NCBI GenBank assembly: GCA_951813565.1
Contig: OX638351.1
Span: 3,936,001 to 4,000,000 of the forward strand
DNA: 64,000 nt
Direction of reading: 5' to 3'
Origin: an uncultured Poribacteria bacterium
Lineage (GTDB): Bacteria; Poribacteria; WGA-4E; WGA-3G
Below the pieces are notes generated by a model that made no database searches, had not been told where the DNA came from, and worked only from the letters and a program-made list of their open reading frames with translations. Position 1 is the stretch's first letter. Every line of letters starts with the position of its first letter. Shown here in pieces: positions 7,852 to 64,000 of the stretch. The position numbers and the translations under genes are program-made.

Positions 7852-8682
7852 TTGTCAGCCGAAATTCTTAACGGCACTCGCCTCGCTCAGCGCATCCGTA
7901 GCCAAATTCGAAAAAAACTAAAAAAACTAAAATTTACGCCAGGACTCGCTGTCATCCAAGTTGGTGATGATCCCGCATCTACCATATATATCAAACACAA
8001 ACAACGCGATTGTGAAAAAGTACATTTCCACTCAGAAGTCCACCGACTCTCCTCCGAGATAACTCAGCAGACACTTATTCAAAAAGTTGTAGAATTAAAC
8101 ACTCGCGAAGATGTCCACGGTATTTTAGTGCAAATGCCACTGCCAGATACAATTGACGAACAAGTAGTCATAGATGCAATCGTGCCTGATAAGGATGTAG
8201 ATGGATTAACACCTTTCAATTTAGGTAATCTATTTATCAATCGGGAAGGAGTTACACCCTGCACGCCAACAGGAATCATCAAACTTATTGAATTTACTGA
8301 AGAACCAATTGAAGGTAAACAAGCGGTCTGTGTAGGTAGAAGCCATCTCGTTGGAAAACCTGTCGGCGTGATGCTTCTCAACCGGAACGCTACCGTCACA
8401 TACTGCCATTCACGCACCAAAAATCTTGCAGAGGTGACAAAAGAAGCGGATATTCTTGTTGCTGCAATTGGAAAACCTGAATTTATTACAGCGGATATGG
8501 TCAAACCGGGGGCAACTGTCATTGATGTTGGTATCAACTCCGTTGATAATCGTCTTGTCGGTGATGTCAAATTTGATGAAGTAAAAGAGGTAGCTGGGTT
8601 TATTACCCCTGTCCCAGGCGGTGTTGGGCCGCTAACACGCGCAATGCTGCTGGAAAATACGCTGAAATTAGCAAGTAGATAA
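7852..8682 (+). CDS. folD: bifunctional methylenetetrahydrofolate dehydrogenase/cyclohydrolase
   Basis: GDDPAS, GILVQMPLP, KDVDG, PCTP, ITPVPGGVGP motifs. Confidence 0.97.
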   Translation: MSAEILNGTRLAQRIRSQIRKKLKKLKFTPGLAVIQVGDDPASTIYIKHKQRDCEKVHFHSEVHRLSSEITQQTLIQKVVELNTREDVHGILVQMPLPDTIDEQVVIDAIVPDKDVDGLTPFNLGNLFINREGVTPCTPTGIIKLIEFTEEPIEGKQAVCVGRSHLVGKPVGVMLLNRNATVTYCHSRTKNLAEVTKEADILVAAIGKPEFITADMVKPGATVIDVGINSVDNRLVGDVKFDEVKEVAGFITPVPGGVGPLTRAMLLENTLKLASR

Positions 8683-52990: not shown

Positions 52991-53983
52991 CTAAGCGCGA
53001 ACCAGAAAAGGTTTATATGCCGCGTCTTCACCCGTTATCACACGTGCCAAATGCCTAACCTGAAGTTCAATGGAACGAAGGTAAGTCGTTTTTTCATTGC
53101 GGGTTGGGTGCTGAAATGTTTGTTGCATCCGTCCATAATACCCTGTAAGGAATCGGTCTAATGCTTTCTTCGTAAAGCGAATGCCTTTGTTGGTCCGCTC
53201 AAAATCTGCTGGTTTTATGCGGTTATTATTAACGAGTGTAAGGACATAACCATCCACAATAATTTGGCGGAATTCCTCCATCAGATCCGAGGCTAATGCG
53301 GCATGCCCATGCTTGGGTTGGTGAAAATAACCACAGTAGGGATCGAATCCAACGACATTGATAAATGTGTATACGTGATTATGTAGAAGTGTATAACCGA
53401 GTGAAAGCATGGCGTTAATTGGGTCTGGCGGTGGACGAAATTGGCGGGTTGTAAAGCCCCAATCGTGTGCCAGAAATTGCCGGAATGCGCGATAATGCGC
53501 AGCAGCACCAACGCCTTCGTATCCAAGAAGTGATTCCAAATTATCAGCTCGTTCAAGCTTCTCTAAGGTCTGGCGTGCTGAATGAATTGCCGAATTTACA
53601 TCTGCATTTTTGGTGCGCTGCCGTTGAGCGAACCGGATAGCGTTCATGAGTTTACCACGGACGAAACATTTCGCTAATGCAAGGCACCGCAGCGGATTCT
53701 CAGCAACAGCGTACTGCTGCTTGCGAATAAGAGTATCTTTGGCATAAGGTGGTTGTAATTTGCCTTTGTATTTGCCCTGTGTAGAAAGGAAAGAGACCGG
53801 GATATTTTTATGGAGCAAGTATCCCATCGTTTGCGTTGTGATATGTCCGTTGCCGAAAATGACAACTTCGTCAAGTTGAGCAATTGGGATTTCCTGTAGA
53901 ATTTCTCGATCTTTTTTTACGACGATCTGGTTTCCAGATTTATGGAGAACTGCTCCTTGTTGGGTGATGTAGAGAATTGCCAT
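52991..53983 (-). CDS. cas1: CRISPR-associated integrase Cas1
   Basis: MAILYITQQG start after AGGAGG; GYEG, RPPPDPINAMLSLGY, H...LASDLMEEFR. Confidence 0.96.
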   Translation of the reverse strand: MAILYITQQGAVLHKSGNQIVVKKDREILQEIPIAQLDEVVIFGNGHITTQTMGYLLHKNIPVSFLSTQGKYKGKLQPPYAKDTLIRKQQYAVAENPLRCLALAKCFVRGKLMNAIRFAQRQRTKNADVNSAIHSARQTLEKLERADNLESLLGYEGVGAAAHYRAFRQFLAHDWGFTTRQFRPPPDPINAMLSLGYTLLHNHVYTFINVVGFDPYCGYFHQPKHGHAALASDLMEEFRQIIVDGYVLTLVNNNRIKPADFERTNKGIRFTKKALDRFLTGYYGRMQQTFQHPTRNEKTTYLRSIELQVRHLARVITGEDAAYKPFLVRA

Positions 53984-54027
53984 CTTGTCCCTCCTATGTG
54001 AGTTTATGGTTTTGCCCAGTTTATTTA

Positions 54028-54274
54028 TAACGTGAGTTTGATAAATCCCGTAGGGAATCAACACCGAATGCGCCTACGGCATTCGGTAGGGTAGAACGGA
54101 AATGGGCAATAAAAAACAGCCTCTAAAGAGAGGTTGTTGACCCATTTGAGGTCTACATTTCTGAAAAAATAAGTGAAACCCAACTCTTTAGAACTCTCAA
54201 GACGGTTGAATTGTTGGGTTTCGCTTCGCTCTACCCAACGGACTATATTCAATTTAATTATCAAACTCACGTTA
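54028..54274. mobile_element. MITE family A (copy 2)
   Basis: close copy of 18731-18979 with TIRs. Confidence 0.8.
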
Positions 54275-54663: not shown

Positions 54664-56061
54664 CTATAATCCGTTATTTTGTTTTTTTAGTCGGTTACCG
54701 AGTTGTGCGGCGATGTTCTTTCCGCGTTGGGTTACGTGTTGTCCGGAACGTGTGACATGAACTACCCCCTGCTTCAACGTATGTTGCACTCTGTTTTGCA
54801 GAGTTTTTGTTCGGGGTGAGGGGAGCGGTTGATAACAACCATCTTTGTCAAAAACGTGTCCAAGAAATTCAATTCCGTTGTCAAAGTGTGCGATTTTCGT
54901 CTTTTTAGGGTTCAGTTGTAGATTAAGTGTTGCAAGCCGTTTTTGCGCACAATTCAGTGCTTGTCGCGCGCGCCCTTCACTTCGGCACAGCATCAGCGAG
55001 TCATCTGCGTATCGTACCATCCGTATACCAGCCCGTGTCACTGCTTTGTCAAATGCATGCAAGTAAAGGTTCGCTAACAGTGGCGAGAGTGGTGAACCTT
55101 GGATAATTCCGATTTTGCGAGGTTGGTTCAGTCGTTCTTTCACAATACCTACGACAGTAGGTGCAGCGAACGCTGCTAAAGCGAGAGGGGCAATCACAAT
55201 TAAGTTTTTAGTGGCAAGCAGCGATCCTATCCTTTTTGAGTTGGCAAGTAATAGGAGTAGTCCGTCACGACCTAAGTTAACAAGGAATTGATTAAAAGTA
55301 TATTCGCGGAGTTGACTCTGTTGGATACCAAATTCGGTGTCGTGGTCCAACCAATCGTCTGTCATTGAGGCATCACTAATCTGCCGATAGGTGTCGAGAT
55401 GGGATGAACGCTGCAGCAGCTGGTTAATCACTTGTTCAATTCCTTGTCCGATGGAGGAAGCCGTATTTTCAATGTGAGCTACCCATCTGGTGCATTTCGG
55501 AGGCTCCACAATCCCGCCCATATCAAGCCACATCTGAATGAGTCTAAGGATAGGTGTTTCTTTAATTGTAGCTCGGAGAAAACGCATCAGAATACGGTTA
55601 TCCATCGTGCCAAAGAAATTCTGGATATCCGCATCAACCACCCATTCGTACCCCTCGGCGCGGATAGCGTTTACCTGAGCAACTGCTTGTGGTACGCCTC
55701 GATTTGGACGATAACCGAAACTACAATCCAAGAATTTTGCCTCGTAAATCGGCGTGATGAGATCACAAACAGCACGTTGAACGATGCGATCTTTGAGTGC
55801 CAAAACAGAGATTTCGCGTGCGCTGCCGTTCGCTTTTTTCATCGTGAACTTTTGAACTGGCAGCGGATAGTAGCGTTCCTCGGCAAGTTCACGTGCAAGT
55901 TGCCGGAGATGCTTCACAAGGTTCACTTCAAACTGTTGGATGGTAATACCATCACTACCAGGACCGCCTTTATTCGCGCGGACTTTTCGCCACGCTGCTG
56001 CTAACGTTTCAGTTTGACATAGCTGCGTTGTGAGAGACGTTGTAGGGACATAGTTAAACAA
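54664..56061 (-). CDS. CRISPR-associated group II intron-like reverse transcriptase (stand-alone)
   Basis: RT0 NKGGPGSDG, DRIVQRA, SFGYRPNR, DADI, QGSPLSPLLAN, YADD, FLG; no maturase/En domain; lies between cas1 and the CRISPR leader. Confidence 0.92.
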   Translation of the reverse strand: MFNYVPTTSLTTQLCQTETLAAAWRKVRANKGGPGSDGITIQQFEVNLVKHLRQLARELAEERYYPLPVQKFTMKKANGSAREISVLALKDRIVQRAVCDLITPIYEAKFLDCSFGYRPNRGVPQAVAQVNAIRAEGYEWVVDADIQNFFGTMDNRILMRFLRATIKETPILRLIQMWLDMGGIVEPPKCTRWVAHIENTASSIGQGIEQVINQLLQRSSHLDTYRQISDASMTDDWLDHDTEFGIQQSQLREYTFNQFLVNLGRDGLLLLLANSKRIGSLLATKNLIVIAPLALAAFAAPTVVGIVKERLNQPRKIGIIQGSPLSPLLANLYLHAFDKAVTRAGIRMVRYADDSLMLCRSEGRARQALNCAQKRLATLNLQLNPKKTKIAHFDNGIEFLGHVFDKDGCYQPLPSPRTKTLQNRVQHTLKQGVVHVTRSGQHVTQRGKNIAAQLGNRLKKQNNGL

Positions 56062-56476
56062 TTAGAATCCTCCTTTTTTAATGGAACATACCATCTAACG
56101 TGTCTATTAGAAATAAGAGATGGGTTTGGAGTAAAGTGAAAAAGTTACGAGATTTTGACCTAACAAAATATAGAGGCATTACGAAGAAAAAGGATAGTAA
56201 TATTTAAAAATTTTGACATTTAGACAAATTTAGGGTATACTTTAATAAATACAAACGCGATTGAACGATTGATTGCTGATGGTGATTAAATTGTCCATGA
56301 ACACATAAGGCACCTTGCTTTTGGGTGTTTTTTGCGGGAAAATCGTGTTTGGTTCAGTGTTCATGCGGGTTTAGAGGGTTTTGGACGGAATTTGGGTATT
56401 AAAAAAATCCCAAAAATCTTCGCGTTTGGTTTTGGCTAATTTAGCCCGCACTGTGACAGGGTTTGGAAGGGGTGCG
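56062..56476 (+). promoter_or_regulatory. CRISPR leader with sigma70 promoter (TTGACA 56213, TATACT 56236)
   Basis: AT-rich non-coding DNA before the first perfect repeat; 17-bp promoter spacer. Confidence 0.75.
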
Positions 56477-59400
56477 GTTCGGAAAGCCTTTCCCGTTTGA
56501 AGGGAATTGAAACGCGGGCTTTAGCCGCCTTGACTAGGTTGTCATTGGGTTCGGAAAGCCTTTCCCGTTTGAAGGGAATTGAAACCAACCTTACCAAACC
56601 CGATTCTTAGGATTTGGCCTTCGTTCGGAAAGCCTTTCCCGTTTGAAGGGAATTGAAACTCATTGGTGGTTGTGACACCAAAGCCAACCTTCAACACGTT
56701 CGGAAAGCCTTTCCCGTTTGAAGGGAATTGAAACACAAACTCTTTTTTTTGGCTCTTACTCCTCCTCCCCGGTTCGGAAAGCCTTTCCCGTTTGAAGGGA
56801 ATTGAAACTACCCATACAGCCTAGAGTCGAAATCTGGAATAGGGCCGAGTTCGGAAAGCCTTTCCCGTTTGAAGGGAATTGAAACTGACTTACAGTCACG
56901 ATGTACGAATTTTCCTTGGGGAAAGTTCGGAAAGCCTTTCCCGTTTGAAGGGAATTGAAACCTCTTTTAATGCCTAAATGACTACAGCCATTCTTCTACC
57001 GTTCGGAAAGCCTTTCCCGTTTGAAGGGAATTGAAACACCTTAATGCACTTGACTTCGAAATTTTCTGCCCATGTTCGGAAAGCCTTTCCCGTTTGAAGG
57101 GAATTGAAACCTCTGGCTCTGGCTCAATCGGTGCATCATCTACCGTTCGGAAAGCCTTTCCCGTTTGAAGGGAATTGAAACTCATAGACCCCGATTGCTG
57201 GGAACAAGTGAGCGATCGCGTGTTCGGAAAGCCTTTCCCGTTTGAAGGGAATTGAAACAAATTTTGTCAGTGGTGGCCTTTTCGTCTCTCAAAAAAGTTC
57301 GGAAAGCCTTTCCCGTTTGAAGGGAATTGAAACTATCTGGAGCTCAATGCTCCGTAAGTCGTTTCCGGGTTCAGTTCGGAAAGCCTTTCCCGTTTGAAGG
57401 GAATTGAAACTCCTTTGATGTTCGGTGTTTGAAAAAACAATCTCCGTTCGGAAAGCCTTTCCCGTTTGAAGGGAATTGAAACATATACTCTTTTGAGCCA
57501 AGCCCTTCGTTTGGATTGTATAGTTCGGAAAGCCTTTCCCGTTTGAAGGGAATTGAAACCTTTCCTCTGTATCTTGTAATAACTCATTTCTGCGTTCGGA
57601 AAGCCTTTCCCGTTTGAAGGGAATTGAAACTTCGCGATACTGTCCGCTAAATCCAACATCACAATCAGTTCGGAAAGCCTTTCCCGTTTGAAGGGAATTG
57701 AAACATGATATTGAATTTCACTTCGGTCAATTTGCGACGAGTTCGGAAAGCCTTTCCCGTTTGAAGGGAATTGAAACGAAACCAGTTACGGAGCCATGCT
57801 ACCCCTAAAACTTGTTCGGAAAGCCTTTCCCGTTTGAAGGGAATTGAAACCCATTCTGCGGTCTCTACAATTTTAAATTTTATTTCGTTCGGAAAGCCTT
57901 TCCCGTTTGAAGGGAATTGAAACGCTTGCATACCCGGCGGTACCAAAGTTGTTGAATTGCGTTCGGAAAGCCTTTCCCGTTTGAAGGGAATTGAAACGGT
58001 TCACCGACAATAGCTATGGTGGTGCCATCAAACAGTTCGGAAAGCCTTTCCCGTTTGAAGGGAATTGAAACATGGTGGTGCCATCAAACAATTCTGCTGA
58101 GGCAGCTACGTTCGGAAAGCCTTTCCCGTTTGAAGGGAATTGAAACCAACGACCCTTACCGCTTTCACGGTGCCGTCTTTTTGTTCGGAAAGCCTTTCCC
58201 GTTTGAAGGGAATTGAAACATCACGACTGTAGTTCGATATTGCGTCGTCTACGTTCGTTCGGAAAGCCTTTCCCGTTTGAAGGGAATTGAAACGAGAAGA
58301 AACTATGGAAACGACTATTAGAGAAACGGTTCGGAAAGCCTTTCCCGTTTGAAGGGAATTGAAACGCAAATCATAATGAACACTATCATCAGGCCGGCAC
58401 ACAAAGTTCGGAAAGCCTTTCCCGTTTGAAGGGAATTGAAACACCTCCGTGATTTCGTGACCGACGATTACTCCATTTTTAGTTCGGAAAGCCTTTCCCG
58501 TTTGAAGGGAATTGAAACCTATAGTAACTGGTAAGGAGGCTGAGCCATTCAGCAGAAGTTCGGAAAGCCTTTCCCGTTTGAAGGGAATTGAAACTTTTCT
58601 CAGCCGTCTTTCCCAGCGCCGCTTGTTGTACGTTCGGAAAGCCTTTCCCGTTTGAAGGGAATTGAAACCGTTAAGATCAAGAGCGTAATTGTCGTTCTAA
58701 GTTTCAAGTTCGGAAAGCCTTTCCCGTTTGAAGGGAATTGAAACACTATTAAGTATCGGGGTGGGTGTGCGATTGTCTTAACTGTTCGGAAAGCCTTTCC
58801 CGTTTGAAGGGAATTGAAACACGATGGCGTCGTTAGAAGTGACTTCGTCCCCAAAACGTTCGGAAAGCCTTTCCCGTTTGAAGGGAATTGAAACTATTTG
58901 CCGACAGCTTTGCTAATACCTTCTTAGCTGACCTCGTTCGGAAAGCCTTTCCCGTTTGAAGGGAATTGAAACATTTCGTTAAGCACAGCCAAAATCAGTT
59001 CTCCTTTGGTTCGGAAAGCCTTTCCCGTTTGAAGGGAATTGAAACACACTACCATCCTAGAGCTGCCAGAGGTGTTCTCTGACTGGTTCGGAAAGCCTTT
59101 CCCGTTTGAAGGGAATTGAAACAAGAAACAATAAATTCGTATGCTGTCTTTCCCAGGCGTCGTTCGGAAAGCCTTTCCCGTTTGAAGGGAATTGAAACAA
59201 GCGTAAGTATCCATCTCTTCTCCTTATTATGTGCGTTCGGAAAGCCTTTCCCGTTTGAAGGGAATTGAAACACTTTTTCTGTCTTACCAACATTATATTT
59301 TCCTCCTGAGTTCGGAAAGCCTTTCCCGTTTGAAGGGAATTGAAACAAATCATTCTTGACACGATCACTAAGAGAGTTCTCGTTCGGAAAGCCTTTCCCG

Positions 59401-60457
59401 TTTGAAGGGAATTGAAACAATGACTGCAAGATAAGAGCAAATAACGCATTAACTCGTTCGGAAAGCCTTTCCCGTTTGAAGGGAATTGAAACGGGTTTTA
59501 TTAAACAATCACACCAACTATAGAAATCGTTCGGAAAGCCTTTCCCGTTTGAAGGGAATTGAAACCTACTCTTCATACTGGCCCAAGCCCAACACCGCTA
59601 GGATTGGTTCGGAAAGCCTTTCCCGTTTGAAGGGAATTGAAACGAATCAAAGAACCCGTCTCGGAACTCCGTCATTGGCGTTCGGAAAGCCTTTCCCGTT
59701 TGAAGGGAATTGAAACACGATAAATCGTATCGGGGTGGGTGTGTTGCGATTGTTCGGAAAGCCTTTCCCGTTTGAAGGGAATTGAAACAAAATCCAGAGC
59801 CGCAAAAAAAATGATAGTTGCCATGTTCGGAAAGCCTTTCCCGTTTGAAGGGAATTGAAACATTTGTAGTGACAACCTTCCCAAAACCAATCTTCAACAG
59901 TTCGGAAAGCCTTTCCCGTTTGAAGGGAATTGAAACAGAAACAAAAAAGAAGTCAGTAAAGTTGGATAAACAATGTTCGGAAAGCCTTTCCCGTTTGAAG
60001 GGAATTGAAACAGAAAATTCCCGGTGGCTACGGTTGCCTCTGCCCCAACGTGTTCGGAAAGCCTTTCCCGTTTGAAGGGAATTGAAACTCATGCGGCGGT
60101 CATACCGCCCGCACCGCCACCTTTGATCGTTCGGAAAGCCTTTCCCGTTTGAAGGGAATTGAAACAGCCATGTTTTCAGTGGCTAGCGAGGACAGAGTTT
60201 CGTTCGGAAAGCCTTTCCCGTTTGAAGGGAATTGAAACATGTGGCGGCCTTCACCATGACGTCATTTGTAGTGGTTCGGAAAGCCTTTCCCGTTTGAAGG
60301 GAATTGAAACCTACGACCATAGCGGTTGAACAACGCCATAATAAGTTCGGAAAGCCTTTCCCGTTTGAAGGGAATAGAAACTTGTAATCTCATCATCAAC
60401 ATATCTGTTTCAGTGACTTTGTTCGGAAAGCCTTTCCCGTTTGAAGGGAATTGATAA
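56477..60457 (+). CRISPR. CRISPR array, 54 repeats (37 bp GTTCGGAAAGCCTTTCCCGTTTGAAGGGAATTGAAAC), 53 spacers of 34-41 nt
   Basis: manual count; 3' ATTGAAAC handle and two degenerate distal repeats give + orientation. Confidence 0.98.
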
Positions 60458-60501: not shown

Positions 60502-61455
60502 TTGATGAAAATTGTTCTTGCTGGTCCCCCTCAATCTGGTAAAAGTTGCTTACGTGAGGGATTGAAGCAGGCTATTCTTGGACTCCAGCGTAACAATTCG
60601 GATATACCATATCCTTATGTAATCACAGCGTGTCCGGATGGTGAAGGAGCATGGTTTCAAGAAACCACGAAAAAATATCCCGAGGTTGCTAAAGCCTGCA
60701 AGGAAGCCTATAAAGGCAAATTCACGCCAAAATTTGTTAAGCTTGTTGCTAAGCATGTACGTAAATGTAAGCAAACCTTGACTATGGTGGACATCGGTGG
60801 ACTTATTAGTAAGGAAAATAAAAAGATATGCAAAGGAGCAACGCATATCGTAATTCTGGCTGGCAACGATTCGGAAAGCGGCGAATGTTGGGATGTCCGG
60901 ATAGCGGAATGGAGAGGATTCGCGAAAGCGTTGGATTTGACTGTGGTGGCAGAGATATTTTCTGATTACCACAGCAAAGCAGATGTTGTTGAAAACGTTG
61001 GCTCGGATAACATCCTCCGCGGAAGTGTTCATTATCTTAAAAGAGGAGTAGACATTGTGGATCGTCCAATGGTTCAGGCATTGGCTCGGCATATTCTTAC
61101 TATAGCGGGGTATCCGCTTACGGGCGAACCTTCTGCGGAATCATCGACCTACATCATTACCCGTGATAAAAACGGTATTTTGCGGGTTGGCTTCGGCACA
61201 CCAGGTGATAACACTCAAATTGTGAAGGATGCCGCTGTGCGTTTGGACGCTATGGAAGAAGCAGGCGAGTTAAGCGGTGGTGATTTACTCAAAATCAATG
61301 GTCCCGCATCATTGCCGGTCGCTATGTTCCTGGGGCATAGGTTGTCTGACCTGTTTGAGGTGATTGCATGCTTTGATCCGAGGATGGATCAGTACGTCAT
61401 CGCAATCAGTCGTAGTTCCGACTCTAAATATGCTGTTGGAAATGTAATTGATTAG
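60502..61455 (+). CDS. csx3: P-loop ATPase fused to Csx3/Crn3 ring nuclease
   Basis: Walker A GPPQSGKS, ACPDGEG.W; C-terminal ILRVGFG..N.QIVKDA, INGPASLPVA, FDPR. Confidence 0.85.
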   Translation: MMKIVLAGPPQSGKSCLREGLKQAILGLQRNNSDIPYPYVITACPDGEGAWFQETTKKYPEVAKACKEAYKGKFTPKFVKLVAKHVRKCKQTLTMVDIGGLISKENKKICKGATHIVILAGNDSESGECWDVRIAEWRGFAKALDLTVVAEIFSDYHSKADVVENVGSDNILRGSVHYLKRGVDIVDRPMVQALARHILTIAGYPLTGEPSAESSTYIITRDKNGILRVGFGTPGDNTQIVKDAAVRLDAMEEAGELSGGDLLKINGPASLPVAMFLGHRLSDLFEVIACFDPRMDQYVIAISRSSDSKYAVGNVID

Positions 61456-61736: not shown

Positions 61737-62012
61737 TTAAACGACAATTGTCTTAGGTTCCGACGTTACATCCCCGACAGCAGGCACTTCAATGCGTCCG
61801 GCGCAAGCATTACAAAGCGCGTAGTACCGCACTGAATCTTCTGAAGAATCGATAATATCCGCAACAGCATGTTTTAATTCCTCATACTGTTTTCGGTTCA
61901 GATGTGCTTCAAACACGCTGTATTGGACACGAGTACCGAATCCTTTAAGTGCTTTCGCAAGTTGACTCCGCCTTCGGTCATCCGGAATATCGTAAGAGAT
62001 AAGATAGAACAT
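61737..62012 (-). CDS. cas2: CRISPR-associated Cas2
   Basis: YLISYDI.DDRRR, RVQYSVFE, EDSVRYY.LC..C. Confidence 0.96.
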   Translation of the reverse strand: MFYLISYDIPDDRRRSQLAKALKGFGTRVQYSVFEAHLNRKQYEELKHAVADIIDSSEDSVRYYALCNACAGRIEVPAVGDVTSEPKTIVV

Positions 62013-62061
62013 CAAATTTCCCTCCATTGATTATGGCTGAATTAATCAGTTCCCACCATTT

Positions 62062-62372: not shown

Positions 62373-62461
62373 TACCAAATTACCCAAAATCGTAGGGGCG
62401 GGTCTCTGTGCCCGCCCGTGTTCTCGGCAGTGAAAACAATACAAAACTTGTTAATTTGGTA
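62373..62461. mobile_element. 89-bp REP-carrying MITE (copy 2)
   Basis: TIRs, TSD TAA; supplies the cas6 stop codon. Confidence 0.9.
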
Positions 62462-63413
62462 TAATGCGATACTGTCCGTGTCCGAATGCTGTGTGATGCC
62501 CGATGTGTAAATACTCGCCAAGATAGATGAACGGCAGGAACGGTGTCAACTCACCCGTAAAGCGAACCTTCCCGATAAACCCATCCATCGGAATAGAACT
62601 CTCTGCACGATAAGAGTAACGGTTGGACTTGAGCCAGCGGAAACGGGATTCGTGTGTAATAGCACGTGCAGCATCAATCAATGCATGTGCGTCCACATCT
62701 AAATCCTCTCTACAATGAAAATAACTCAAAAAACGGATACGTCTGAGAAGGTTGCGGATAAGATGTTCAAATGTTAACGCGCTTGTCCATCGACCATCAA
62801 CCTTTATACTGGTCGGTGTGAGAAATTCGAGTTCAATTGCATCGCGGTTCTGAGGTGTGCCTTCCAATACATCTGCCAACCCAAGAATAATGCCATCATC
62901 AGCGAGCATCTCAGTTTCTGCGGTGTAAATCGTCTGGCTGTTAGGGCTGCCATGCACTGAGAGGCTTTCGATCTTGTCAAGAAGACACTGCCCGCGCTTG
63001 TCTCGTATACCGATGCGCCGTTTACCTATCTCACGGAAGGTAAACGCTATCCACGGCAACAGGTTGATCGCCTCTCCAATGAGTGTCATACTGCAGACGA
63101 AGGTGTCGTCTGGTGCAAAGTCTGTTTTCTCGGTGTGCGGCGGTTGTAGGATGAACGGATGCGGCGCATAGGGCTGTCCGCGTAGGATGGGACTGTCGGG
63201 TGGAACTGGTGTTTCAAAGCATTTGGAATAGATACACCGATTTGGATGTTGACACTTTTGTTCACACGTTTGCGTTTCTCCGATGCATGCGATGTGGCGG
63301 AGCAGGTATCCGAATCGACTGCGGAAGATGTTGCCTTTGTAGCGTGACATCTTCAGTGGTTCTTGGGCGGTATAGGTGAAGCGGTAGCGGGCAAAGCGGA
63401 AGTTTTTGAGCAT
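62451..63413 (-). CDS. cas6: CRISPR RNA processing endoribonuclease Cas6
   Basis: C-terminal G-rich loop GEYLHIGHHTAFGHG, FLTP, Cys cluster. Confidence 0.9.
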   Translation of the reverse strand: MLKNFRFARYRFTYTAQEPLKMSRYKGNIFRSRFGYLLRHIACIGETQTCEQKCQHPNRCIYSKCFETPVPPDSPILRGQPYAPHPFILQPPHTEKTDFAPDDTFVCSMTLIGEAINLLPWIAFTFREIGKRRIGIRDKRGQCLLDKIESLSVHGSPNSQTIYTAETEMLADDGIILGLADVLEGTPQNRDAIELEFLTPTSIKVDGRWTSALTFEHLIRNLLRRIRFLSYFHCREDLDVDAHALIDAARAITHESRFRWLKSNRYSYRAESSIPMDGFIGKVRFTGELTPFLPFIYLGEYLHIGHHTAFGHGQYRIIPN

Positions 63414-64000
63414 TATGGAAGTGGCGCGATGAATTGATGTTGTTTGTTAAAGTCGTCAGCATCAATACATGCAATCTTTTGTGCCTTCTTGAATTGTTCT
63501 TCAACAGTTGTTTTAAAGGCTTTGAATTCTTTGCTACTGATCATACGCATACCATGTGCGTAGATACTTTGATTCCTCGTTCCCACTTGATTTTGAAACT
63601 TTCCCCAGTCCAAGCCTTGAACAATTTTATCGTCGAGAGCGTGTAATAAAAGGTATCCGTCAACCAATCCAATGGAGGCAGGAAGAGCAGATCTATCTGT
63701 GCGTTGGAAAACTTCCTTCAATTTAGCCGCATACAGATTGAAAATTTCACCCTCATCAATATTAGAATAATTCGGTTTACGAGTATCAATATTGTACCCT
63801 GCAAGACGGTGTTGTTCGATCCACTCAAGAAGCCGATAGAGAATCAGGCAGGCGGTGTTGAGTTTTCCTTGTGCTTCTCGACGGAGTGCATTGTGATAGA
63901 GCATAAACGCAAAGTGAAACCCATTAGGAGCATTGAGTGCCAGTTTTTCATTTTTGAGAAACATCAGTAAAGCTTCCAGTGCTTTTATGTGTTTTTCAAT
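63413..64000 (-). CDS. partial CRISPR accessory effector, TIGR02710/Csm6-like CARF-HEPN (5' end outside window)
   Basis: LYRLLE.I.Q..L and RNQSIYAHG (HEPN R-x-H motif); frame stays open to the window edge. Confidence 0.7.
   Translation of the reverse strand: MEKHIKALEALLMFLKNEKLALNAPNGFHFAFMLYHNALRREAQGKLNTACLILYRLLEWIEQHRLAGYNIDTRKPNYSNIDEGEIFNLYAAKLKEVFQRTDRSALPASIGLVDGYLLLHALDDKIVQGLDWGKFQNQVGTRNQSIYAHGMRMISSKEFKAFKTTVEEQFKKAQKIACIDADDFNKQHQFIAPLP

Follow-up and report, generated by a model that had tools for sequence, protein, structure and literature searches.

Why should a CRISPR array draw about a fifth of its spacers from a single small gene? This question is raised by an array near the end of a 64,000-nucleotide stretch (hereafter the window) from an uncultured Poribacteria bacterium (GenBank assembly GCA_951813565.1, contig OX638351.1, positions 3,936,001 to 4,000,000, forward strand). 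A preliminary description of the window had proposed that many of the spacers target foreign genes for Csx3/Crn3 ring nucleases, which mobile elements would carry as anti-CRISPRs. Our analysis confirms that the observation is real, and redirects its explanation from phage to a cellular parasite. With moderate confidence we favor a reading in which Csx3 from a Patescibacteria episymbiont acts as an anti-CRISPR inside the host, its RNA enters the host cell and is sampled by a reverse transcriptase (RT) together with Cas1, and the resulting antisense spacers cut the message.

The array occupies positions 56477..60457 on the plus strand and comprises 54 repeats of 37 bp and 53 spacers, exactly as first described. 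An AT-rich leader (56101..56476, plus strand, 36% GC) is placed between the RT gene and the first repeat, and the last two repeats at the far end are degenerate. Because of these two features and the 3′ end of the repeat, the plus strand is assigned as the CRISPR RNA (crRNA) strand and spacer 1 (sp1) as the newest. The array and its flanks are found in contigs of four of four sequencing runs from two studies, and the array varies between strains. No protospacer contig was detected among the contigs of these four runs, where short matches may escape detection.

A Csx3 profile was derived from 58 sequences homologous to the Csx3 domain of the host, and all spacers were scored in six frames against a null of 500 shuffled spacers and 500 genome fragments, for which the 99th percentile was 9.7 bits and the maximum 12.5. 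Eleven of the 53 spacers (sp1, 2, 3, 6, 10, 15, 28, 31, 32, 46 and 51) score at least 11.6 bits in the antisense direction and beat the null (p ≤ 0.003 each). None reaches that score in the sense direction, where sp9 (10.7 bits) and sp36 (10.2 bits) rank highest. Antisense orientation, as had been claimed, thus holds for 11 of 11 csx3 spacers; by a codon test, 28 of the 42 other spacers are also antisense. This hidden Markov model search with shuffled controls, which the preliminary description had proposed as a check, bears out all nine spacers listed there as clear. Those listed as weaker fare unevenly: sp15 passes, but sp11, sp33, sp37 and sp38 fail (p = 0.09–0.21), and sp11, sp33 and sp38 are dropped as csx3 spacers. 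As a control, part of the spacers from related arrays in other genomes of the genus were scored in the same way, and none of these 288 reached the threshold in antisense (11/53 versus 0/288, Fisher p = 5e-10).

The csx3 spacers, all on the plus strand, sample different parts of the gene. The newest, sp1 (56514..56548; p = 0.001), and sp2 (56586..56622; p = 0.001) are antisense to a foreign csx3, whereas sp3 (56660..56697; p = 0.001) is antisense to another allele with a loop one codon shorter. The C-terminal part of an allele with Phe at the catalytic Asp position is matched by sp6 (56886..56924; p = 0.001), the second-histidine region by sp10 (57182..57221; p = 0.001), a csx3 start by sp15 (57560..57593; p = 0.002), and the signature motif by sp28 (58519..58557; p = 0.001). 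A further allele, whose peptide also resembles the viral branch discussed below, is matched by sp32 (58821..58857; p = 0.003), and csx3 is again the target of sp46 (59862..59899; p = 0.001) and of sp51, the third-oldest spacer (60239..60273; p = 0.002). Alone, sp37 (59199..59234) is not significant (p about 0.1); by position it aligns antisense to the region from ribosome-binding site to start codon, probably that of csx3. Assignment of sp31 (58745..58783; p = 0.003) to a csx3 C-terminus is uncertain: it has no DNA match to any scored locus, and it may belong to another target, since it has a core in common with sp44 (p = 0.075). The array therefore probably holds 10 to 13 csx3 spacers, of which ten are firm, sp31 is doubtful and sp37 is probable. 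The spacers represent the GFG region in at least four allelic forms, in agreement with the preliminary description (sp2 versus sp46, 19/27; sp46 versus sp32, 19/26; sp51 versus sp1, 20/30), with sp46 and sp51 overlapping at 10/10 bases and so representing the same allele. The alleles hit span the whole history of the array, from sp1 to sp51.

Some other spacers also form groups. The pair sp21 and sp22 (57998-58109) overlap by 19 bases and have one target in common, and sp31 (58745-58783) and sp44 (59717-59751) have a core of 15 bases in common, with a 3-base indel; a second recurrent target therefore exists. A scan of viral contigs with part of sp21 gave no match. The rejected sp38 (59272-59309) reads better as antisense to the strong ribosome-binding site and start codon of a non-csx3 gene.

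Where do the targeted genes reside? Elsewhere in the 5.43-Mb host genome, none of the spacers is matched over its full length (best partial match 20–22 bases), and self-targeting is rejected on this ground. We searched with a profile seeded with nine spacer peptides and carried forward the best 120 of 1658 proteins. One protein, P0102, fits the spacer peptides best, with a summed score of 436 versus 339 for the next among 154 proteins and the same outcome among 333. It is encoded on metagenome contig LXNJ01011726.1 (hereafter L050; 3750 bp), the sole locus confirmed in the metagenome scan. The search for spacer matches that the preliminary description had outlined thus yields a close metagenome contig, but no exact protospacer and none in the host's own genome. 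DNA identity to L050 is 33/37 bases for sp2, 29/35 for sp1, 31/38 for sp46, 27/35 for sp51, 27/39 for sp6, 25/39 for sp28 (not diagnostic of source) and 24/37 for sp32, which matches the viral locus L114 equally well. Four spacers are therefore 77–89% identical to one 312-bp gene, while the 288 control spacers reach at most 67.5% on the same contig. All four mismatches of sp2, and 22 of the 37 mismatches of the five best spacers (p = 0.001), fall at third codon positions, the pattern expected of natural alleles. Related loci fit other spacers: sp3 against locus L051 exceeds all 288 null spacers, the best DNA match of sp10 (29/40) is the syntenic copy in L051, and sp6 matches a Poribacteria-group csx3 (L026) at 28/39. 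None of the 53 spacers matches the remainder of L050 convincingly. Two further host arrays with 30-bp repeats (C1:1198127-1201309, 47 spacers; 2830673-2832378, 25 spacers) have no match to L050 (best 24/36), and comparison of the main array with three genomes gave nothing credible.

On the basis of its predicted structure and its family score, P0102 is a member of the Csx3/Crn3 family with the corresponding fold. Its model (pLDDT 92.8) returns AfCsx3, the Archaeoglobus fulgidus enzyme, as each of the ten top Foldseek hits (E = 7e-5, TM about 0.6), and it scores 31 bits against Pfam Cas_csx3, above the cut-off of 21; its closest profile is the Csx3-AAA subfamily. A single-sequence search of the Protein Data Bank with P0102 gave no match. 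At the catalytic sites H57 and D69 align, the second His is at 61 rather than 60, R71 is replaced by Lys, and the equivalent of H80 is one column off (the profile match to AfCsx3 being weak, E = 0.055).

The host's own csx3 differs from this target. It is not a 300-bp gene but the C-terminal domain of a 317-amino-acid P-loop NTPase-Csx3 fusion (60502..61455, plus strand; PADLOC Csx3-AAA, E = 7e-76; Pfam Cas_csx3 18 bits, cut-off 21), the sole csx3 in the genome, and the spacers' targets are not host paralogues. The domain keeps the first conserved His and the Asp, and has Asp in place of the second and Arg in place of the third conserved His, a loss that the preliminary description missed. With two of three conserved histidines missing, the fused domain is probably not an active ring nuclease. 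Its nearest named homologue, from Candidatus Poribacteria, is 81% identical. The same histidines are lost in the host (60502-61455) and in parasite Csx3 copies adjacent to a P-loop gene (L051:3109-3453, L090:9339-9689); two parasites thus carry beside their P-loop gene a second, histidine-less csx3 that resembles the host fusion domain. This distribution suggests a non-catalytic sensor or regulator form beside an intact stand-alone form. A host-group genome, G1085, encodes two stand-alone intact csx3 genes on different contigs (C2 near 475600, L175; C4 near 2432060, L183).

Could the spacers nevertheless stem from the csx3 of ordinary neighboring bacteria or from a copy that the host itself carried earlier, taken up as DNA or through RT-Cas1 from abundant RNA, with no anti-CRISPR role? 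The host fusion lies directly behind the array and is the only match among 38 sampled genomes of its genus, and sp6, together with a spacer of a related genome (G106), fits host-group csx3 and parasite copies about equally well. However, identity of the host gene to the spacers is at background (15–22 bases), host-group csx3 genes form their own tree branch, the two newest spacers are 83–89% identical to L050, and the presence of four alleles that differ at third positions implies that many foreign genes are alive. The DNA matches to L050 largely contradict such an origin, and we regard it as highly improbable.

What kind of organism carries the target? The closest match to L050 among the genomes scanned is G156, a 0.6-Mb genome titled Saccharibacteria, in which the P-loop protein is 85% and the TrmB protein 86% identical and the whole layout is syntenic. 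A genome scan with the P-loop protein returned three loci, those of G156 (85%) and G157 (60%), both titled Saccharibacteria, and one ordinary type III locus. In a P-loop tree, L050 and G156 are joined with support of 100/100 within a Patescibacteria branch, also 100/100. In a Csx3 tree of 37 rows and 101 columns, with many forks left open, the target falls in a branch rich in Patescibacteria (94/96); the branch of host-group copies (99/96) and the main viral one (97/94) are separate from it. Since P-loop and TrmB are 85–86% identical and syntenic with a Patescibacteria genome, the target appears to be a gene of a cellular episymbiont rather than of a phage or plasmid, and DNA of Patescibacteria is quite likely the main target lineage. 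The mobile-element interpretation first offered is accordingly retained in part: the targets are foreign, diverse, of Csx3 fold and outside CRISPR loci, but the close target lies in Patescibacteria-type chromosomal DNA.

Two genomes from the class of G156 carry proteins named Portnoybacteria and Pacebacteria/Paceibacterota, and the lineage is therefore probably Paceibacteria rather than Saccharimonadia. Among 101 genomes of the genus of G156 there were three matches to L050, none closer than G156 itself. Related csx3 genes are rare, at about 1–2% of the Patescibacteria genomes sampled: 6 of 401 genomes drawn at class level, 8 of 401 at phylum level and 2 of 151 at family level, with G156 included every time. 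Most carrier copies lie in small islands among housekeeping genes, and the G157 cassette adjoins infC and rplT (gene names read from translations). No RAMP genes were found in 13 of 15 carrier genomes, all of which are incomplete bins, and there is no cas gene on L050. In three islands (L072:8742-16419, L088:8707-13743, L092:7467-14488) the csx3/P-loop pair heads a longer series with a MoxR-type ATPase, large genes and many strong ribosome sites. An 8-kb contig of a Patescibacteria bin (L091, G807:C15), on which a csx3-like gene adjoins a cas operon of its own, is possibly mis-binned.

Does the target cassette itself hold clues to its use? The order on L050 is P-loop NTPase, csx3 remnant, TrmB regulator, promoter-like region, 30-bp hairpin, csx3, hairpins and a predicted type III hammerhead ribozyme, so that the coding region is preceded by the hairpin and followed by the ribozyme. 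Relative to G156, the P-loop gene of L050 is truncated and only a remnant of the neighboring csx3 copy is left. Ahead of the target csx3, the promoter-like region is present as a 119-bp direct duplication, 98% alike (L050:2764-3001). Three stand-alone csx3 cassettes end in a putative hammerhead, with RF00008 scores of 40.7 and 44.7 bits (E about 1e-6; gathering score 48.5), an intact core, and stem I differences between two copies that are compensatory. Behind csx3 and the hammerhead are GC-rich orphan genes with no Pfam match (L051:6565-7716, 351 amino acids; L052:9680-10042, 120 amino acids), and the 351-amino-acid gene of L051 is led by a strong ribosome site, with a second hammerhead core behind it.

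Strong Shine-Dalgarno sites precede 10 of 11 stand-alone Patescibacteria csx3 genes, a count that leaves out six carriers with unfixed starts (L071, L073, L086, L091, L092 and L170). TrmB, the neighboring P-loop genes of L050–L052 and the histidine-less second csx3 copies have none. Across 306 kb of G156, a Shine-Dalgarno-like site precedes 18 of 178 long open reading frames (ORFs), no more than random ATGs (15%), compared with 54% of 708 ORFs in the host by the same crude start calling. Coding-region folding is likewise distinctive: eight of eight stand-alone copies tested have z values of −2.8 to −9.0 relative to synonymous shuffles (30 each), versus +0.2 to −1.5 in three CRISPR-locus copies and −0.6 to −1.5 in three viral copies. 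To judge from these signals, the csx3 gene looks addressed to another cell. Genes without ribosome sites (L051:1774-4464, L090:9339-11677, L050:770-1561) share low-complexity N-terminal extensions that begin Met-Glu and are rich in Pro, Gln and Glu; these could be export signals, and the parasite may keep one set of protein-delivered and another of RNA-delivered genes.

On the minus strand of the host locus, cas1 (52991..54064; Pfam Cas_Cas1, E = 2e-93) has upstream of it a stand-alone CRISPR-associated RT with an intact catalytic YADD (54664..56061; RVT_1; best PADLOC model PDLC01136 RT, E = 1e-95), which the preliminary description had overlooked. An intact RT thus adjoins both cas1 and the leader, as in RT-associated adaptation, and its position beside cas1 would offer a direct route from abundant RNA to spacers. 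The antisense bias fits RNA-derived spacers but is not proof of them, and no spacer in the array spans an RNA-only junction. Also on the minus strand lie cas2 (61737..62027), cas6 (62451..63413) and the 3′ part of a 504-amino-acid CARF-HEPN (Csm6/Csx1-like) effector (63413..64000), and the operon continues beyond the window with Csx21, RAMPs, Csx19, Csm2 and a Cas10 with GGDD. The Cas10 GGDD, Csx19, Csm2, RAMPs, CARF effector and Cas6 identify a type III-D system with cyclic-oligoadenylate signaling.

The reading we favor would run as follows. The host's type III-D system makes a cyclic-oligoadenylate alarm, and its RT beside Cas1 could take spacers from RNA. Strains of a Patescibacteria (candidate phyla radiation) episymbiont, equipped with a stand-alone csx3 and no CRISPR of their own, would live on this host and attack it repeatedly. 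Their csx3 would form a message of its own, highly stable and headed by a strong Shine-Dalgarno site of a kind not used by native genes of the parasite, and this RNA, or transcribed DNA, would reach the host cytoplasm. There the protein would destroy the alarm, presumably by degrading cA4, or soak it up. Being abundant and long-lived, the csx3 message would become the main source of new spacers, the antisense spacers would let the host cut the anti-CRISPR message, and the parasite's csx3 alleles would drift away from the spacers, possibly escaping under selection. Type III crRNA acts only on RNA inside the host cell; with a fifth of the array devoted to one parasite gene, parasite nucleic acid would have to get in, and the parasite would need the host's alarm silenced. 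The finding that the closest spacer match lies in Patescibacteria DNA and not in a virus suggests that parasites of this kind send anti-immunity messages into their hosts.

Could entire messages be delivered? We put forward only tentatively that Patescibacteria deliver finished, heavily folded mRNAs to be translated by host ribosomes as effectors, one of them a ring-nuclease anti-CRISPR, with the array as the host's RNA-derived record. If true, a Patescibacteria lineage would have Poribacteria named as its host. Imaging has shown a tube about 8.6 nm wide between a Patescibacteria parasite and its host (PMC11880426), which makes a physical route for RNA conceivable.

Alternatively, Patescibacteria genes may be targeted because parasite DNA or a mobile island enters the cell, with the protein acting in the parasite or delivered as protein, so that spacers would record contact and not mRNA delivery; type III adaptation would then favor DNA downstream of strong promoters. 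The G156 cassette adjoins a serine recombinase, a terminase-like fragment and tRNAs, so the csx3 cassette may be mobile. Transcription-dependent capture from DNA is published for a type III-A system (PMC13575424), for Patescibacteria and their hosts, both spacer matches and DNA transfer have been reported (10.64898/2026.09.16.751625), and the sole carrier 16S rRNA with a readable tail, that of G691, keeps a normal anti-Shine-Dalgarno, so that carriers may read such sites themselves. Yet entering DNA should scatter spacers over the island or genome, and none of the 53 matches P-loop, TrmB or the rest of L050, which the host's two other arrays also miss. Nor would DNA entry explain why csx3 alone has host-type start sites and a folded message capped by a predicted ribozyme. 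We consider this alternative unlikely.

A viral origin, closest to the preliminary description, would have host phages or plasmids carry Csx3 anti-CRISPRs as early genes, with the Patescibacteria match reflecting gene exchange among elements and cells that share the host. By alignment search, 11 IMG/VR contigs (L113-L123; 12–189 kb) encode members of the family at 35–51% identity, in small-ORF regions and near position 8000 in most contigs, and none of five contigs tested has RAMP genes. To judge from these surroundings, the genes are good candidates for viral Csx3 anti-CRISPRs. The peptides of sp32 and sp28 resemble viral-branch proteins, and type III spacers are reported to favor early phage genes (PMC13575424). 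However, spacer DNA identity on the 10 viral loci scored is at background, at most 25 bases versus 27–33 on L050 for five spacers, and five of six viral copies form their own branch outside that of the target. Among 50,697 phage records there was no match to the target protein and none credible to the array, and 13 plasmid records matched proved to be cyanobacterial Csx3 with less than 50% identity. Exact scans of viral contigs with sp46 and with part of sp21 were empty, as were searches of those contigs with the host Csx3 domain and P0102 as single queries; the P-loop query reported two relatives there and returned no locus. A BFVD fold search found no viral Csx3 model at E ≤ 0.001. A viral source for the array as a whole is thus distinctly unlikely in our judgment, but viral relatives may explain some spacers, and a virus may have been a minor contributor (one to three spacers) alongside the parasite.

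How widespread is the bias? One 45-nt antisense csx3 spacer occurs in G106, a genome of another genus in the host's family that lacks csx3, has an RT elsewhere in the genome and has a type III operon beside its array. A motif scan of 176 genomes in the host's phylum gave nine matches in eight genomes, eight of them in csx3 genes and one in this spacer, which was also the only clear match among arrays near the csx3 loci of nine host-group genomes. Strong csx3 spacer bias is so far seen in one genome.

Several further observations weigh against delivery of a Patescibacteria message. Csx3 targeting is absent from the 288 spacers of the host's relatives, and the G106 spacer lies in a conserved motif where host-group csx3 matches at up to 32/45 and parasite copies at up to 34/45. 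No protospacer is exact, the best match being 89%; only sp1, sp2, sp46 and sp51 (weakly sp6 and sp10) point to the L050 lineage; sp28 and sp32 fit viral-branch proteins equally well; and L050 is an unbinned contig of 3.75 kb. The remaining spacers have no convincing match in 306 of about 600 kb of G156 or in 14 cassette loci. The subfamily has Lys at catalytic Arg71, and Asp69 is Phe in the sp6 allele and Cys in L052, whose csx3 also lacks a ribosome site. One P-loop segment without a ribosome site is likewise over-folded (z = −3.3). Codon usage of the L050 csx3 is not host-favoring (log-ratio −0.002; spacers −0.061), and as a discriminator between host and parasite it does not separate the two.

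Patescibacteria, mostly uncultured, account for a large share of bacterial diversity, and their action on hosts is little understood. If the favored reading is true, anti-CRISPRs extend from viruses and plasmids to a cellular parasite, Csx3 is added as an anti-CRISPR fold (present also on the 11 viral contigs), and arrays of this kind offer a way to pair uncultured parasites with their hosts. Reportedly, Esser et al. described in 2023 host CRISPR spacers against archaeal episymbionts. A literature search, with subscription journals mostly outside its scope, found no paper that connects Patescibacteria with ring nucleases, or the candidate phyla radiation with hammerheads, and the accessible portions of two papers (PMC13059738, PMC13739734) do not describe such a case.

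How does the target compare with known systems? Ring nucleases of the Crn3/Csx3 type cleave cA4 in a Mn-dependent reaction as stacked dimers. The enzyme of A. fulgidus has known structures (PDB 3WZG, 3WZI, 6VJG, 6YUD) and published chemistry (PMC7371418). The target resembles AfCsx3 in its predicted fold and in keeping His57, Asp69 and a His near 80, and differs in its overall identity (19–23%), in Lys for Arg71 and in a second His one residue on. It also differs in location: no CRISPR locus surrounds it, and most genomes that carry such genes lack type III subunits. The PADLOC Csx3-AAA and AAA-Csx3 models (PDLC01045, PDLC01059) match both the host fusion and the parasite's P-loop and csx3 pair, but the parasite pair is split and without CRISPR.

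The host locus resembles a type III-D system in Vibrio vulnificus whose RT-Cas1 shows RT-linked antisense acquisition (PMC6821258), as far as the available text of that report describes it. Type III-D, an RT beside Cas1 and antisense bias are common to both, whereas the host RT is a separate gene and not fused. The nearest precedent on the target side is a host type III-E system in which, according to the available text, two spacers match ORFs of unknown function in a Patescibacteria epibiont (10.64898/2026.09.16.751625); here, in contrast, 10–13 of 53 spacers converge on several alleles of one gene, from a family of CRISPR off-switches.

The closest functional parallel would be the viral ring-nuclease anti-CRISPRs AcrIII-1 and AcrIII-2, which have DUF1874 and SAVED folds (PMC12751052, PMC12409355). 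A survey of 28,114 phage genomes with profiles including Crn3 lists, in its accessible part, only AcrIII-1, Csx20 and Csx16 (PMC12409355). Like AcrIII-1 and AcrIII-2, the target is a predicted off-switch of type III signaling carried by an invader without cas genes, and lack of an own type III system is seen for both the Patescibacteria carriers and the five viral records. In contrast to them, it has a different fold, and the best target is carried by a cellular parasite rather than by a virus or plasmid, the viral relatives not being the ones matched. With catalytic residues that are partly canonical, the target would thus work like an AcrIII protein without having a viral carrier. The parts are individually known.

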